Source: a virus
Length of the DNA stretch: 27,630 nt
Reading direction: 5' to 3' (one strand)
UHGV virus genome: UHGV-1949486
Within the stretch, counting starts at the first letter, position 1. Every line of letters starts with the position of its first letter. Positions 13,697-18,690 of the stretch are shown here, one piece after another. A program made the translations under genes and the position numbers. The notes beneath the pieces were generated by a model. It was not told the origin of the DNA, did not search any database, and saw nothing but the letters and a program-made list of their open reading frames with translations.

Positions 13697-14467
13697 ATGA
13701 AAATGCAGACATTACCCATCGTTCCATGGATTGGTGGCAAACGCCGCCTTGCAAAACACATCCTGCCGCTGTTTCCGGCGCATGAATGTTATGTGGAGCC
13801 GTTTTGTGGGGCAGCAGCGCTCTATTTTCTTAAGGTACCCGGCAAGATCGAAGTCATTAATGATATCAACGGTGAGCTGGTGAACCTGTATCGGGTGGTA
13901 AAACATCATCTGGAAGAATTTGTACGCCAGTTCAAATGGGCGCTGGTCAGCCGGCAGATCTACAAATGGCTGCAGATCACCCCGGAAGAAACACTGACGG
14001 ATATCCAGCGTGCAGCACGGTTCTACTACCTTCAGAAGCAGGCGTTTGGGGGCAAGGTGGCGGAGCACAGCTTTGGTACCTCCACCATATCCCCGCCACG
14101 CTTCAACCTGCTGCGTATTGAAGAAGAACTGTCAGCGGCACACCTGCGGCTTTCCAGAACGGTCATAGAACACATGGACTGGCAACAGTGCATAGAACGA
14201 TATGATCGCCCGCATACGTTGTTCTACTGTGACCCTCCATACTGGGGAACGGAAGGTTATGGTGTGGAGTTCGGACTAGAAAATTATGATCATATGGCAG
14301 ATTTAGCACGCAGGATCAAAGGGAAGATGATTATATCGGTGAACGATATCCCGGAAATGCGGCAGGCATTCAACGGTCTAAATATTCAGTCGGTTGATAT
14401 CAGCTACAACCTCAAGATCACTGGCAAATCCAGTCGCAAGAAGGAACTCATTATCCTCAACTTTTGA
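13697..14467 (+). CDS. dam: DNA adenine methyltransferase (Dam-like, D12-class N6-adenine MTase), orphan
   Basis: 256 aa; FxGxG-type AdoMet motif (EPFCGAAALYF) and catalytic DPPY motif (FYCDPPYWGTEGYG); N-terminus WIGGKRRL typical of Dam; no adjacent restriction endonuclease gene. Confidence 0.85.
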   Translation: MKMQTLPIVPWIGGKRRLAKHILPLFPAHECYVEPFCGAAALYFLKVPGKIEVINDINGELVNLYRVVKHHLEEFVRQFKWALVSRQIYKWLQITPEETLTDIQRAARFYYLQKQAFGGKVAEHSFGTSTISPPRFNLLRIEEELSAAHLRLSRTVIEHMDWQQCIERYDRPHTLFYCDPPYWGTEGYGVEFGLENYDHMADLARRIKGKMIISVNDIPEMRQAFNGLNIQSVDISYNLKITGKSSRKKELIILNF

Positions 14468-15662
14468 CCGAATAGTAAGACTTCATGCAGTGAATCAAGT
14501 ACTGCATGAAGTCAAGGGCTGGTTTTGTGTACCAAAAATAAACAGTGATAGCGGTAATAATTCCCATAACTAGAACACCACGTATAATCCAGAACGTACG
14601 TTTCTGCGTGTCTAGTCGCGCAGAAATACTGCTAAATACACCAGCCACGTCATCTTTAATGAAGGAATATTCCTTATTAATCTGTTTTTCTTTGTATTCA
14701 ATTTCTTCGCCTAAGGCCTTTATAGATTGCATCTGGTTCGAAAGTGCCAGCCAGATTAACGTTGCAGCAAAAATGCATCCCAGAAGAATTATTGTGTTTG
14801 TTATCCCTTGGCCTGACCATTTCGTAGCCACTTTGAATTGGGTAGCTACGATAACAGAGGCAACAGGAATGCCAAGTATATGGTTCTGGATATCTGAAAA
14901 CGCTTTGTGGATTTTACCCATTTCTTCGACTTTTGCAGCACGCAGTTGATCCATTACTTTGTCATAAGAGAATCCAGAAGAGTAGATACGATACCCTTTC
15001 AGAAACTTTTCATGCAGACGCTGAATATTGTCCAGTAAATAAGCGAATACTAGAGGTGAATCAATTCCATCACTAACTGCTTGAATACTTTCAATCAGAA
15101 TATCTAGCTTCTGATCCTTATGGGTATCATCATTGAAACAAGCTATAAGGTTATCAAGATACTCCCTTTGCAAATTTTGTACATTTTCTGCAGCGAAGTG
15201 CGGTAATAGCTTGATAACTTCTTTTTTCAGAAAAACTAACTGACAAGTTGAGTTATCAAAGTAGGCCGCGGCCTCTTTTAGCAGGTTAACGAACTCGAGA
15301 ATCTTCCGGTAGTTGCTGATGAAAACGGGGATATCTTCATCATCATTACGAAATTTTGTTTCTAGGATGAAGTAATTAGCTGGCTCAAGGCACTGATGCT
15401 TTGGAGCATTTAGCAATTTTTCATGGGTGGAAAACACAAGTCCCAGTCCACTCCGTGGTGACGTCACACGTAGGATGATCGTGTTACCTGGAGCGATAGT
15501 GCCTGTATCAATAGAAAGACCATATTCACGAGGATCATCAAGCAAAGTATCAACCAGATCACAATCGGACTGATCTAAGAGCAACAGCGAACCGACACGA
15601 AACCCCTCTTGGAATTCCATACGACGATACAGAGCTGTCAGCATCTCAAATGAAATCGCCAC
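14457..15662 (-). CDS. Uncharacterised protein with two C-terminal transmembrane helices; downstream partner of the YejK/NdpA-like gene (candidate effector of a two-gene accessory system)
   Basis: 401-aa ORF starting 2 nt after the upstream gene stop; hydrophobic helices GITNTIILLGCIFAATLIWLALS and FWIIRGVLVMGIITAITVYFWY near the C-terminus; AT-rich codon usage unlike flanking phage genes; no family recognised by eye. Confidence 0.6.
   Translation of the reverse strand: MAISFEMLTALYRRMEFQEGFRVGSLLLLDQSDCDLVDTLLDDPREYGLSIDTGTIAPGNTIILRVTSPRSGLGLVFSTHEKLLNAPKHQCLEPANYFILETKFRNDDEDIPVFISNYRKILEFVNLLKEAAAYFDNSTCQLVFLKKEVIKLLPHFAAENVQNLQREYLDNLIACFNDDTHKDQKLDILIESIQAVSDGIDSPLVFAYLLDNIQRLHEKFLKGYRIYSSGFSYDKVMDQLRAAKVEEMGKIHKAFSDIQNHILGIPVASVIVATQFKVATKWSGQGITNTIILLGCIFAATLIWLALSNQMQSIKALGEEIEYKEKQINKEYSFIKDDVAGVFSSISARLDTQKRTFWIIRGVLVMGIITAITVYFWYTKPALDFMQYLIHCMKSYYSVKS
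14479..14513. terminator. Perfect 13-bp-stem hairpin (9-nt loop) at the convergence of dam and the 401-aa gene; candidate bidirectional terminator
   Basis: GACTTCATGCAGT gaatcaagt ACTGCATGAAGTC read directly; a T-rich tract (GGTTTTGTGT) lies 7 nt downstream on the plus strand; overlaps the last 18 codons of the minus-strand gene. Confidence 0.5.
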
Positions 15663-15664
15663 GA

Positions 15665-16672
15665 TTAAACCTCAGTCATCCACATTTCCCTAAATTCTTC
15701 AGGTACATTACGTAGGGTGATAATATTTGTTTCCGGATCATAATCAATATAGCCTTCAGTTTTCCCTTCCCGGTCAAACTTAAGTTCCCAATATTTAGAC
15801 TTGCCTTTAAAAGATACCAGAGCCCGAATGACTCGACCATCAGGAACGAAGCCATCCGATAACTCCAACTCTTCAGCAGCAAGTTTACCAGATAACTCCT
15901 CGGGAGCCTGGGGCCAAATGGCATTAACAAGGGTTTCAAGACTAAGTGGTTCACCAGCCTTACTTAGTGCATGTAAGTGTTCAAACGCACTCTTAAGAAA
16001 TGCATCTTTTTCAGCGCCGTCAAGTCCTTTCTCTGCCGCAAATGCTTTTAAAACGTCACGTAACTTTTCAGACTCTCGTTTGGCGATTAAGACATCATTA
16101 CAGCCTAGGAACTGTTTAAAATAGTTTGAAACATTACCTTGCCCCTTAAGAAAACTGATATAGCGCTCTGCGCCACTTTCCCACGCGGTTAAGTCAATGC
16201 GCCCAGCCATACGCAGCTTAGCAATATCAAGATAGGTACTATCTTGGATGTTAAAATCATCTGTGACAGTGGACCCAATGGTAGCGCTTACAATAGCTAT
16301 CAACAGGTGTTCATTGTGTCCTATCACGATATTTGCAAAAAGAACATAACCACCAGTAGCCATGTTTTCTCGCTGAGAACGTTCCGTCAGGTGATGCATC
16401 ATTCGGCAGGAACTTTGGTAGAAATCATCAACACCTTCGAGAAAGTCCCCAGCCATTCGTTCCATAGGATAGTTATCCGTATCGCCTTCAAAATAGCCAT
16501 AACCTTTACCTGTGCGTCCTGCATATTTTGCACAAATATCGTTTATAAGGCGCTGAGAGGCTTCAGTAACTAGACCTTCTTCAGGACTCAATCTCTCAGA
16601 AGCGTCTCCATTTTGTTGTTTGTCTAAAATGTGAACTACAACGTGTTTAACTTCAATGGTCTGCTCAGACAT
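15665..16672 (-). CDS. YejK/NdpA-family nucleoid-associated-protein homolog (phage-borne)
   Basis: 335 aa, same length as E. coli YejK; recognisable family blocks (HVVVHILDK, GGYVLFA, HLLIAIV, RIDLTAWESGAERYISFLKGQG) matching YejK as recalled from memory; strong AGGTGG Shine-Dalgarno 7 nt upstream of the ATG at 16672; AT-rich. Confidence 0.7.
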   Translation of the reverse strand: MSEQTIEVKHVVVHILDKQQNGDASERLSPEEGLVTEASQRLINDICAKYAGRTGKGYGYFEGDTDNYPMERMAGDFLEGVDDFYQSSCRMMHHLTERSQRENMATGGYVLFANIVIGHNEHLLIAIVSATIGSTVTDDFNIQDSTYLDIAKLRMAGRIDLTAWESGAERYISFLKGQGNVSNYFKQFLGCNDVLIAKRESEKLRDVLKAFAAEKGLDGAEKDAFLKSAFEHLHALSKAGEPLSLETLVNAIWPQAPEELSGKLAAEELELSDGFVPDGRVIRALVSFKGKSKYWELKFDREGKTEGYIDYDPETNIITLRNVPEEFREMWMTEV

Positions 16673-16742
16673 TGGCTATCCACCTTATTTTTTATTGCTT
16701 AATGGCAAATAATTTCTGCTATATGTTCTCGTTAGGAACACA

Positions 16743-17150
16743 TTAACCCACATTTTTTAACCGCTCAATCGTTGCGGATAATTCCTTCAGTTGTTTTTCC
16801 ATCTCAATCACACGCTGTTTTTCTTCAGCGCCTCGCATGAGATCTCGCCGAACCTCAGGATCTAACTGGTTTAGAAGTTCAAGCATTTTAAGGTCTGACG
16901 GGCTGAATTGATGTTGTGTTGGTACAGCAACAATTTCTTTAGATGGAATATGTTCTTTACCGGTAAGTAGCCAATCGATTGATACACCCAAATGGGTACT
17001 TAGCGCAACAAGAGCCTCTGCGTTTGGTTCTCTCTCTCCACGCAAATAGTTTTGAAGTGAGCGATATGGAATTTTTGATAAGTCAGATAATGCCTTTATT
17101 GTCATGCCATTAGCATCCATCACTTCACGCAATCTCTCTTTTGTACTCAT
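16743..17150 (-). CDS. Prophage repressor, XRE-family helix-turn-helix (c/CI-like)
   Basis: HTH segment (MTIKALSDLSKIPYRSLQNYLRGEREPNAEALVALSTHLGVSIDWLL); divergent from the early operon; start placed at the internal ATG 17150 (MSTKERL...) because the longer ORF to 17246 would run through the early promoter. Confidence 0.7.
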   Translation of the reverse strand: MSTKERLREVMDANGMTIKALSDLSKIPYRSLQNYLRGEREPNAEALVALSTHLGVSIDWLLTGKEHIPSKEIVAVPTQHQFSPSDLKMLELLNQLDPEVRRDLMRGAEEKQRVIEMEKQLKELSATIERLKNVG

Positions 17151-17166
17151 TTGAACATATCTCAAT

Positions 17167-17194
17167 TTGACACACTCATTTGGGTGTGTACAAT
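17167..17194 (+). promoter_or_regulatory. Early promoter (Pe-like): TTGACA, 16-nt spacer, TACAAT, with an operator-like dyad ACACAC/GTGTGT in the spacer
   Basis: Hexamers read directly at 17167-17172 and 17189-17194; inverted repeat 17170-17175 / 17184-17189; sits between the divergent repressor and ner-like genes. Confidence 0.55.
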
Positions 17195-17238
17195 AGACCC
17201 AATAGAGTACATCATAACCTAACAGGAACACGGTGCAT

Positions 17239-17463
17239 ATGAACAAACAACAAGTTCGGGCACGGCTGGTTGAACGAGGCAGTAGCTTGCGCCAGTTCGC
17301 GCTTAACGCGGGCTATGAACCACGAACAGTCACCCAGGCAGTCAGTCGCTGGGCTGGTAAAAGTGAACTACCTCGCGGTCGTTTGACTTATCGGATTTTG
17401 CGAGATCTATCGGTTGCAATAGGTAAAGAAGTTACCCCCGGTATCCTTAAGGAGGCGTCATGA
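17239..17463 (+). CDS. ner: Ner-like DNA-binding protein (Mu Ner / Nlp family)
   Basis: Similarity to Mu Ner core (SLRQFALNAGYEPRTVTQAVSRW); first early gene; ATG at 17239 preferred over GTG at 17233 on AGGA spacing. Confidence 0.7.
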   Translation: MNKQQVRARLVERGSSLRQFALNAGYEPRTVTQAVSRWAGKSELPRGRLTYRILRDLSVAIGKEVTPGILKEAS

Positions 17464-17768
17464 ATAAACCAAATACATCAAGCTCAGGTATCCGTATTTT
17501 GCGCGTTCTTAAGGCCTTACGTGGCCACGCTTTGAACGGTGTTTCTAACGGGGAACTAGCGGTTGCACTGCACGAATCACCGGCAAACATCAACCGGGCA
17601 CTTAACACGCTCATTGAAGAAGGGTTGGCTCTGAAACTAGAAAACGGGCGTTTCGCACCAGGCATCCAGTTGCTGCAGATCGCCATGGCCCACAGTAACG
17701 AGATGGCACGTGCACAGGATCGCATTAACGAAATCAACCAACGTGTTATTTCAGGTAGTCGTTTGTAA
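17460..17768 (+). CDS. Putative winged-helix DNA-binding protein (hypothetical early protein)
   Basis: 102 aa; AAGGAGG Shine-Dalgarno; ATGA overlap with ner stop; HTH-like segment NGVSNGELAVALHESPANINRALNTLIEEGL. Confidence 0.5.
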   Translation: MNKPNTSSSGIRILRVLKALRGHALNGVSNGELAVALHESPANINRALNTLIEEGLALKLENGRFAPGIQLLQIAMAHSNEMARAQDRINEINQRVISGSRL

Positions 17769-17778
17769 GGAGTAATCA

Positions 17779-18690
17779 ATGGGACGCACCAAATCACCGG
17801 TTAGCACTGAACTGAACGTCGAGGTACCGCTGTCGGATGATCTCAATGTCAGTCTAAACGCCATGACACAGCATCGCATGGAAATCATGCAACAGTTCGG
17901 CGATGGTCTGCCTTATGAGCGCGATCGTGTTGTCCATGAGGCACGCTTTTATATGGCACAGAGCGCTGAGGCCATGCTGGAGGCAGGTAAGCGGCTGATA
18001 ATCCTTAAGGAAAATGAACCACACGGGGAGTTTATAAAGATTCTTGAAAGTGAGTTGGGGCTGGCATACCGGACATCTGTGAGAATGATGCAAGCATCGA
18101 CAAAATACTTATCCCCGGCGCTGAAACCAAATGTGCCAACGTTGGCACATTTGGGAAAAGCCAAACTTTTCGAATTAATGACAGAAGACGACGAAGAGCT
18201 TGCCGAACTGGCCGACGGCGGCACAGTTGCCGGCCTGACGCTTGACGACGTTGATCGCATGTCAGTACGCGAACTTCGCCAGGCCCTGCGCGAAGCGCGC
18301 GAAACCAACGCAGCACAACAGCGCGTACTCGCCGATAAAAATGAAAAAATTGATTCTCTCTCTACCAGACTGGAAAAGAAATCCCGTATTCAGCTGCCTG
18401 AGCCTGATGAGGAGGTTAAGAAGCTGCGGGCGGAAGTGACAGCATTAGCGGTTGAGGCGGAATCTGCCATCGCCGTTCGACTGTCCAGCGCTTTTGAGAC
18501 ACTGTGCGCATATTGTGCTGAAAACATGATTGATACCCCCAGAGACTTCATGGCAGGCCTGGTCTGTCAACTGGAAAGCACAGCGCGTAGCCTGCGCTCC
18601 ACATTTGACCTGCCGGACGAGCCAACAGGCGATGTCGCGCCTTCATGGCTGACTGAGCCGACGCCACAGATTAACGGGCTGGAGGCATAA
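17779..18690 (+). CDS. Hypothetical early protein (303 aa)
   Basis: AAGGAG Shine-Dalgarno; acidic and coiled-coil-rich; no catalytic motif recognised. Confidence 0.5.
   Translation: MGRTKSPVSTELNVEVPLSDDLNVSLNAMTQHRMEIMQQFGDGLPYERDRVVHEARFYMAQSAEAMLEAGKRLIILKENEPHGEFIKILESELGLAYRTSVRMMQASTKYLSPALKPNVPTLAHLGKAKLFELMTEDDEELAELADGGTVAGLTLDDVDRMSVRELRQALREARETNAAQQRVLADKNEKIDSLSTRLEKKSRIQLPEPDEEVKKLRAEVTALAVEAESAIAVRLSSAFETLCAYCAENMIDTPRDFMAGLVCQLESTARSLRSTFDLPDEPTGDVAPSWLTEPTPQINGLEA

Follow-up and report, generated by a model that had tools for sequence, protein, structure and literature searches.

The DNA analysed here, a 27,630-bp stretch of the UHGV virus genome UHGV-1949486 (the window), belongs to a Mu-type (BcepMu-like) transposable prophage of Escherichia coli, as judged from gene content and gene order. 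Its positions 17151–17238 were picked out by an earlier, sequence-only reading as a divergent immunity switch, and these coordinates turn out to be the whole 88-bp gap between two start codons, the ATG of the repressor (complement of 17148–17150) and the ATG of a 74-aa gene at 17239. An HTH_3 repressor gene on the minus strand and the early operon on the plus strand thus diverge from a common intergenic region. The repressor (16743–17150) is a 135-aa protein with an N-terminal HTH_3/XRE domain (about residues 1–65) followed by a C-terminal domain of about 70 aa. The first gene of the early operon (17239–17463, plus strand) encodes a 74-aa Ner-like small DNA-binding protein that resembles BcepMu gp16.

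The region is likely to be the lysis/lysogeny switch of the prophage, in which the repressor would act on four operators to control the early promoter Pe, while being made from a weak leftward promoter and subject to feedback by the Ner-like protein.

The early promoter and its probable operators

Pe lies at 17167–17194 on the plus strand and consists of TTGACA (17167–17172), a 16-nt spacer and TACAAT (17189–17194), as described in the sequence-only reading. It matches the consensus at 11 of 12 positions and is the sole σ70 match of at least 11/12 on either strand of the window, with 0.175 expected per mononucleotide shuffle. A promoter occurs in the same place in about 70 related loci, almost all of which have TTGA..-16/17-TAnnnT at this position with conserved hexamers. 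Transcription from Pe is predicted to start around 17201, and the leader contains no notable RNA structure (z = −0.48).

In one locus of the KP12 type, L016 (IMGVR_UViG_2513237354_000015), the −10 hexamer upstream of the ner-like gene is changed from TACAAT to TGCAAT, which alters the near-invariant A2, and there are two more changes between OA (see below) and the −35 hexamer. The early promoter of this locus may be decaying or down-tuned.

The spacer of Pe is occupied by the inverted repeat ACACAC-N8-GTGTGT (17170–17189), which was already noted in the earlier reading and has no second copy in the window, with or without a single mismatch (0.11 expected). The comparative data indicate that the functional unit is a 16-bp site of 7-2-7 form, ACACTCA-TT-TGGGTGT, whose first base is the last of the −35 hexamer, and the outer AC and GT of the longer repeat are parts of the −35 and −10 hexamers. 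This core of the dyad (17172–17187) is here called OB, the primary operator. A σ70-type lytic promoter is thus overlapped by an operator-like dyad, as far as sequence can tell, and the dyad fills the spacer in the approximately 70 loci.

The earlier reading treated the dyad as a single operator and suggested looking for further copies. Three were found (17143–17158, 17195–17210 and 16984–16999), which makes four operators, not one. OA (17143–17158; GTACTCA TT TGAACAT) lies over the repressor start codon, −29 bp from OB. OC (17195–17210; AGACCCA AT AGAGTAC), a weaker operator, lies over the predicted start of Pe, +23 bp from OB; its left half is type-specific, while its right half (GAGTAC) is conserved in all types. 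The fourth, OD, lies inside the repressor gene.

All four were assessed against the degenerate pattern RYACYCA-WW-TGRGTRY. With up to two mismatches, the pattern has six matches in the 41-kb prophage region against 1.11 expected, a number reached by none of 100 shuffles, and four of the six fall within 227 bp. Only this threshold is informative, since with up to three mismatches the window has nine matches against 7.5 expected. The sole other match with up to two mismatches in the window, ACACTCTTCTGGGTGC at 2023–2038, lies inside the open reading frame at 1239–2666, annotated as tail sheath in E. coli M-17, and was treated as chance. OA and OC cannot be separated from chance in a single window, and therefore family-wide profiles were used instead; the reality of these two sites rests on those profiles.

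Co-variation of operators and repressor

Related loci were gathered by anchoring on the 74-aa protein, which gave 80 viral loci at 62–100% identity, plus KP12 and E. coli relatives. In 55 of 73 unique loci, the first base of the dyad is base 6 of the −35 hexamer; most of the other loci have a less symmetric dyad. When the OB half-sites of each locus were slid along that locus’s own sequence in 24 non-redundant representatives, half-site similarity peaked only at −29 (4.75/7) and +23 (4.54/7), over a background of 2.1. These are the positions of OA and OC.

Two classes of repressor adjoin the conserved Ner-like gene. Class I, to which the window belongs, has an HTH_3 domain with the motif IPYRSLQNYLRGEREP, and class II has a CI_repr-like domain with the motif VNRQTLASWRKRDSVPY. 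In the present alignment, the two classes are alike from a “DWLLTG” motif through the C-terminal part, and the C-terminal ~70 aa of the window’s repressor are common to relatives with a different DNA-binding domain. Class I repressors go with a 16-bp (7-2-7) site in a 16-nt spacer (36/38 unique loci) and class II repressors with a 17-bp (7-3-7) site in a 17-nt spacer (all 33 unique loci). Within the classes, half-site subtypes can be distinguished: RYACYCA in the window, TTATTCA in the relative TUM17543, TACGCA and TTACCCA.

TUM17543 is the most telling case. It has TTATTCA at all three positions equivalent to OA, OB and OC, and its repressor has an N-terminal domain unrelated to that of the window, joined to a C-terminal domain that is similar from “DWLLTG” on, next to a Ner-like protein that is 99% identical. 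More generally, the Ner-like protein is 99–100% identical in the window, KP12 and TUM17543, while repressor type and half-sites change. Since the half-sites track the repressor domain while the Ner-like protein stays constant, the sites follow the repressor and not the Ner-like protein. This supports the proposal of the sequence-only reading that the dyad is a repressor operator, as both its sequence and its length vary with the DNA-binding domain of the repressor. The same co-variation, in which half-sites and site length follow domain class and subtype, is what would be expected of operators specific for their cognate repressor, and hence of heteroimmunity. At the level of sequence, the comparison thus demonstrates a promoter, four sites, a fixed geometry and co-variation with the DNA-binding domain, and Pe with OA, OB and OC as repressor operators can be proposed with good confidence.

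Cro and the repressor bind to common operators in λ and P22. By analogy, the dyad and its copies might be sites for the Ner-like protein as a Cro analogue, or be common to both proteins, and the right half of OC (GAGTAC) and the block adjoining it are indeed conserved along with the Ner-like protein. Yet OA, OB and the left half of OC are wholly different between loci with practically the same Ner-like protein (RYACYCA versus TTATTCA) and track the N-terminal domain of the repressor, which makes this explanation improbable.

Still less probable is that the inverted repeat arose by chance in an AT/GT-rich spacer, that its copies are coincidental and that repression works through some other site. 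Such a view could draw on the lack of individual significance of OA and OC in the window and of enrichment at the three-mismatch level. It does not explain why a dyad should be found at the identical position, base 6 of the −35 hexamer, throughout the family with differing sequences, why the family profiles have sharp peaks at −29, +23 and −188/−175, why no shuffle reaches the observed number of close matches, or why synonymous positions under OD and OA are constrained (see below).

The most common immunity type among the E. coli relatives is of another kind. In strains PK8275 and AR_0081 (L005/L006, positions 2640–2780), the repressor is different and shorter, the Ner-like protein has 62 aa and is 27% identical, the promoter is TTGACT-17-CATAAT, and a directly repeated TCTGCAC is found in place of the dyads. 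The operator logic of these loci apparently differs.

A candidate operator inside the repressor gene

OD (16984–16999; ACACCCAAATGGGTAC, i.e., ACACCCA-AA-TGGGTAC) is a candidate distal operator that covers repressor codons T52–V56, −188 bp from OB. It has zero mismatches to the degenerate operator pattern and is identical to OB at 13 of 16 positions. A scan of ±900 nt with each locus’s own OB gave a pile-up at −188 to −190 in six of nine class I representatives and at −175/−174 in nine of 15 class II representatives, with only about ten matches elsewhere in 24 × 1800 nt. OD co-varies with OB in L077, L035, L048 and L062: L077 has an unusual CCTA..TTGG variant in OB and OD alike, and L035 has ATACGCAATTTGCGTAG as OB and CTACGCATTTTGCGTAT as OD.

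Codon usage points in the same direction. In 15 class I genes, synonymous-codon identity is 1.0, 0.87, 0.86 and 0.71 at codons 53–56 (H-L-G-V), under OD, and 0.8–0.99 at codons 2–4, under OA, compared to 0.2–0.5 elsewhere. The OD leucine codon is TTG in 14 of 15 genes and the glycine codon GGT in 13 of 14, while the other leucine and glycine codons of the same genes have values of 0.19–0.33.

OD could instead be a side effect of codon preference and of peptide conservation (T-H-L-G-V in class I, P-Y-x-x-C-V/I in class II), which would leave only the three intergenic sites. OD does lie within conserved coding sequence, several class II ODs match a general TTAYNCA core rather than their own OB, and the right half of the KP12 OD is poor. 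Against this explanation, the Leu and Gly codons of OD vary far less (identity 0.87/0.86) than the others of their kind, OD follows OB in the four loci named above, and a dyad is found about equally far from OB in the genes for two unrelated DNA-binding domains. On balance the by-product explanation appears unlikely, though less so than the two considered for the intergenic sites. OD is probably a real DNA element, and the sequence comparisons incline us somewhat towards a functional one.

In class II loci (e.g., L022, L035 and L062), the intragenic dyad, about 175 bp upstream of OB, is encoded by the conserved peptide P-Y-x-x-C-[V/I], and the bases that specify the half-site are Tyr-Ser, Tyr-Ala or Tyr-Pro codons (TAT TCA, TAC GCA and TAC CCA, respectively). 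As the specificity bases are at the same time codons of a conserved peptide, operator and protein sequence are coupled at these residues.

Measured from centre to centre, OA and OC are 52 bp apart, OD and OA 159 or 146 bp, and OD and OC 211 or 198 bp. With a helical repeat of 10.5 bp, the spacings correspond to 4.95 turns, 15.1 or 13.9 turns, and 20.1 or 18.9 turns. OA, OC and OD would thus share one face of the helix in class I and class II alike, which is only suggestive.

The boundaries of the exchangeable DNA can be seen in a BLASTN comparison of the window with the heteroimmune relative TUM17543, in which this part of the window has homology only at 16724–16989 (78%) and 17202–17798 (91%). 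The 212 bp in between (16990–17201) have no homology and make up a specificity cassette. This cassette encodes the DNA-binding domain and includes OA, OB, most of OD and the left half of OC. As the non-homologous DNA holds both the domain and the type-specific half-sites, specificity and cognate sites travel as one module. Taken together, these observations lead to a joint reading, which is put forward tentatively, as not quite an even prospect: a swappable cassette of about 212 bp that carries its own operator, OD, in the DNA that encodes the DNA-binding domain, with double recombination swapping specificity and four sites together, OD looping to OA and OC, and operator and protein evolving in a coupled fashion.

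The conserved leader block and a possible repressor promoter

To the right of the cassette, in the 5′ leader of Pe, is a conserved non-coding block of 27 bp (17205–17231; GAGTACATCATAACCTAACAGGAACAC), which is a candidate site for the Ner-like protein. Its consensus, GaGTACAT.tTAACCaA.taGGAACAc, is kept in all 24 representatives regardless of repressor class. The block is conserved even across loci whose Ner-like proteins are only 62–70% identical, and loci whose Ner-like protein has just 27% identity lack it. It includes TATGAT (complement of 17211–17216) and the Shine–Dalgarno sequence AGGA (17224–17227). Inspection by eye for internal symmetry or repeats gave only a weak direct repeat, G[T/A]ACA...GAACA, 19 bp apart, and no convincing Ner box.

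The minus-strand hexamer next to GTAC is always TA...T in the 24 representatives (TATGAT, TAAGAT, TAATAT, TAAAAT, etc.). This is the signature of a −10 element, from which leftward transcription is predicted to start around 17203–17205, facing Pe. The hexamer is visible only when the loci are anchored on GTACA; anchoring on OB and averaging the minus-strand promoter score over the family gave no outstanding offset, as the register is not the same in the two classes.

The sequence-only reading had found no clear hexamers for a repressor promoter, and this is borne out, as the best minus-strand candidate, TATGCA-17-TATGAT, reaches only 8/12. Its further claim that this promoter must lie within the same 80 bp is unproven: the only conserved −10-like element (17211–17216) is indeed inside, but its −35 would sit on the ner start codon. 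A leaderless or proximal promoter just upstream of the repressor ATG was considered and rejected, since none of the types, inspected by eye, has a conserved −10 at a suitable distance.

The repressor might also be transcribed from elsewhere, for example from a back-to-back promoter TTATGA-16-TATTGT (17218–17190) that shares its −10 region with Pe, or from a promoter inside the early operon. The lack of a −35 for the TATGAT candidate leaves room for this, and the back-to-back promoter, a 7/12 match, would put OC in its spacer, mirroring OB in Pe. Its hexamers are not conserved in TUM17543 or other types, however, while TA...T is found next to GTAC in 24/24 representatives. A different promoter is accordingly a possibility of some weight, if a minority one.

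We propose from these alignments that the block is the −10 of the repressor promoter, the binding site of the Ner-like protein, or both; a translation signal is a further candidate. The assignments of the repressor promoter and of the Ner site are both tentative.

The regulatory proteins

The repressor matches Pfam HTH_3 (E = 3e-12) and Phage_CI_repr (E = 1.5e-6) as well as PHROG transcriptional repressor families. It also aligns over residues 5–131 of 135 with the NCBIfam DicA model NF007257 (E = 2e-10), but at 40.4 bits against a cut-off of 101 it falls outside the DicA subfamily. No match to a Peptidase_S24 C-terminal domain was found in Pfam, PHROGs or NCBIfam, which sets the protein apart from LexA/CI-type repressors, and since this domain is lacking, RecA-mediated self-cleavage is unlikely. 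DicA itself has no Ala-Gly cleavage site, has three operators in a divergent intergenic region and is controlled by an antirepressor (PMC10448788). By analogy, induction would be expected to occur by an antirepressor or protease route.

The Ner-like protein is more difficult to place. It has no significant match to the Ner family profile, Pfam HTH_35 (PF13693; E = 0.007, 16.7 bits against a cut-off of 25), and its match to TIGR04111 (BcepMu_gp16; E = 7e-7) is also below the cut-off. BLASTP against Mu Ner gave 33% identity over 42 aa (E = 5e-4), and hhalign gave a probability of 54%. Sequence searches of the PDB with the protein, alone and as a 19-homologue profile, retrieved no Ner structure. 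The AlphaFold2 model, which made use of database homologues, has four helices and a predicted local distance difference test score of 94. Its top matches in a Foldseek search of the PDB are to EnrR, with template modelling scores of 0.62–0.66 and a probability of 0.95, but with E = 0.18. EnrR belongs to the Ner family, with PF13693 and 45% identity to Mu Ner (PMC9023278).

The position of the gene fits: it is the first early gene, with 74 aa compared to the 75 aa of Mu Ner, and has the same placement relative to the repressor and the A and B genes, with two extra genes between it and A. The label “ner-like” used in the earlier reading is weakly supported by the BLASTP match to Mu Ner and by EnrR as best structural match. 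It is a reasonable analogy, but membership of the family is not established, as both profile matches are below their cut-offs. The protein is probably a distant homologue of Ner.

The 74-aa gene has an alternative GTG start at 17233, which is 5 nt after AGGA, compared to 11 nt for the ATG at 17239, and so has the better Shine–Dalgarno spacing. In more distant relatives, there is also an in-frame ATG four codons ahead of the aligned start.

A model for the switch

In the proposed mechanism, the DicA-like repressor, probably as a dimer, would bind to the 16-bp RYACYCA-WW-TGRGTRY operators. Occupation of OB, which fills the spacer of Pe, or of OC, which lies over its start, would exclude RNA polymerase and keep the early operon off. 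OA and OD most likely stabilise the complex through cooperative or looping contacts and probably also feed back negatively on repressor expression.

Transcription of the repressor itself most likely runs leftward from a weak promoter that lacks a −35 and has the −10 TATGAT (17216–17211), facing Pe. RNA polymerase at the strong Pe would compete with this promoter, such that more repressor would be made once OB is filled, up to a limit set by occupation of the weaker OC. Once the switch is derepressed, Pe would yield the Ner-like protein, which is proposed to bind to the conserved block (17205–17231), shut off the repressor promoter and dampen Pe, as Ner does in Mu and Cro in λ. What we infer, as opposed to see in the sequence, is DNA binding, loop formation, the repressor promoter and the site for the Ner-like protein.

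Several observations count against this model. In a scan for similarity to OB in the window alone, OA (10/16 identical) and OC (11/16) are at chance level, about one match per 460 bp, and one large class I subgroup (the L051 type) has a poor match at the position of OC. The loci are phylogenetically related, so that the counts given above overstate the number of independent events. OD overlaps the coding sequence of a conserved motif and is thereby confounded with it, in several class II loci it matches the locus’s own OB only partly or has the generic TTAYNCA core instead, and the helical phasing between OD and OB differs between the classes (188 versus 175 bp). The candidate repressor promoter is an 8/12 match with no convincing −35 in any lineage, and its conserved −10-like hexamer could be kept for another reason, e.g., as a site for the Ner-like protein. 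The literature searched contained no binding, transcription-start or expression data for this phage family.

The prophage and its relatives

The window matches E. coli M-17 at 100% identity, and in that strain the prophage is flanked by tail genes and rstB. Sequences at least 99% identical to the window are present in 18 complete genomes, and the prophage family is found in 635 of 5,426 complete genomes, including sequence type 131 (ST131) strains, with related elements in Klebsiella phage KP12. Its arms are divergent, as in BcepMu-like phages, with the late genes leftward and the early operon rightward. The early operon encodes, in order, the 74-aa Ner-like protein, an IclR-type HTH protein, DUF3102, the rve transposase A, an AAA_22/ExeA B-like ATPase and Gam, and continues to Mor. 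Besides the divergent arms, the features that mark a BcepMu-like phage are the rve (DDE) transposase, the AAA_22/ExeA ATPase, Gam, Mor, a DUF935 portal, a Mu-F-like head protein, and Gp37 and gp16-family annotations. The repressor of BcepMu and KS10 is gp17, and gp16, encoded next to it, is a DNA-binding protein (PMC2628397).

Just downstream of the repressor gene and in the same direction are two cargo genes (14457–16672, minus strand). One encodes a 335-aa NA37/YejK-type nucleoid-associated protein (PF04245, E = 1e-80) and the other a 401-aa protein with no Pfam match and a weak PADLOC match to KwaA (E = 8e-5). The gene content of this slot, between a Dam methylase gene and the repressor gene, differs in KP12 and TUM17543. 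It looks like a hotspot for lysogen-expressed morons or defence genes, possibly Kiwa-like.

Comparison with known switches

The OR region of λ and P22 consists of OR1-OR2-OR3 between cI/c2 and cro. The present region resembles it in having a divergent repressor and small second regulator, three tandem dyads over the lytic promoter at 23–29 bp centre to centre, a weaker site so placed that it could limit repressor synthesis, and an immunity specificity that appears exchangeable as a module (λ OR layout as summarised in PMC10448788). It differs in that the repressor has 135 aa and no S24/LexA-like cleavage domain, that one operator lies on the repressor start codon and a fourth inside the repressor gene instead of a distant OL, that the second regulator probably does not share the type-specific operators, and that the phage replicates by transposition.

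Closer in the repressor itself is the DicA–DicC pair of the cryptic prophage Qin, with the Gifsy GfoR/GfhR short-repressor class: the repressor here likewise has 135 aa, and its alignment with the DicA model is full-length. A score of 40 versus 101 bits means that it is not an orthologue, however, and the partner is Ner/gp16-like rather than DicC/Cro-like, in a transposable phage of the Mu type. No antirepressor was identified here.

Mu, with its c and ner genes and the operators O1-O2-O3 with Pe and Pc, shares the leftward repressor, the rightward early promoter leading into ner, transposase A and the B ATPase, and a small, probably Ner-related HTH protein as the product of the first early gene. 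In Mu, the repressor promoter is to the right of Pe and faces it, as proposed here. The repressors are different, HTH_3/DicA-type with short symmetric operators here and Mu c/MuA-domain-type with long composite operators in Mu. The Ner-like protein is only distantly related (33% over 42 aa), the arms are divergent as in BcepMu, and no integration host factor site was identified here. The gp17/gp16 pair of BcepMu and KS10 is from the same phage type and represents the same gene pair, with a TIGR04111 match, albeit below the cut-off, and Gp37, gp16 and Mor annotations that fit. No operator or promoter descriptions for BcepMu or KS10 were found in the literature searched.

Auxiliary intragenic looping operators are known from lac (O2 in lacZ) and gal (OI in galE). 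OD is similar in being a full copy of the operator in coding sequence, at 150–210 bp from the sites near the promoter and approximately in helical phase with OA and OC, but it lies in the regulator’s own gene, in the part for the DNA-binding domain, and looping is putative here. The region probably works like λ/P22 OR, DicA–DicC and Mu c/Ner, but is not a member of the DicA or Ner families at the sequence level by curated thresholds.

Implications

Nothing specific was found in the literature searched on this switch, on the immunity of BcepMu-like E. coli prophages, on the Pe/Pc layout of Mu or on intragenic phage operators; the family is common in E. coli, yet no description of its immunity control was found. 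Two features of the region are mildly unusual: a probable operator within the repressor’s own gene, in the stretch coding for the DNA-binding domain, and a compact cassette that has been fitted with two unrelated DNA-binding folds, with the promoter spacer matched to operator length. The intragenic operator and the cassette logic illustrate dual coding and modular evolution and leave the general understanding of phage switches unchanged.

If the cassette reading is true, its conserved flanks (the C-terminal domain on one side and the leader of the Ner-like gene on the other) would allow a single double recombination to exchange specificity plus all four cognate sites. Two unrelated folds, HTH_3 and CI_repr-like, would have been fitted to one geometry (−188/−175, −29, 0 and +23), with the length of the promoter spacer (16 or 17 nt) adjusted to that of the operator, and the fact that half-site bases are codons of the domain would force operator and protein to evolve together. 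For the prophages themselves, the operator and promoter map predicts which are homo- and which are hetero-immune, and the family provides a compact natural set of orthogonal repressor/operator pairs on a common scaffold.

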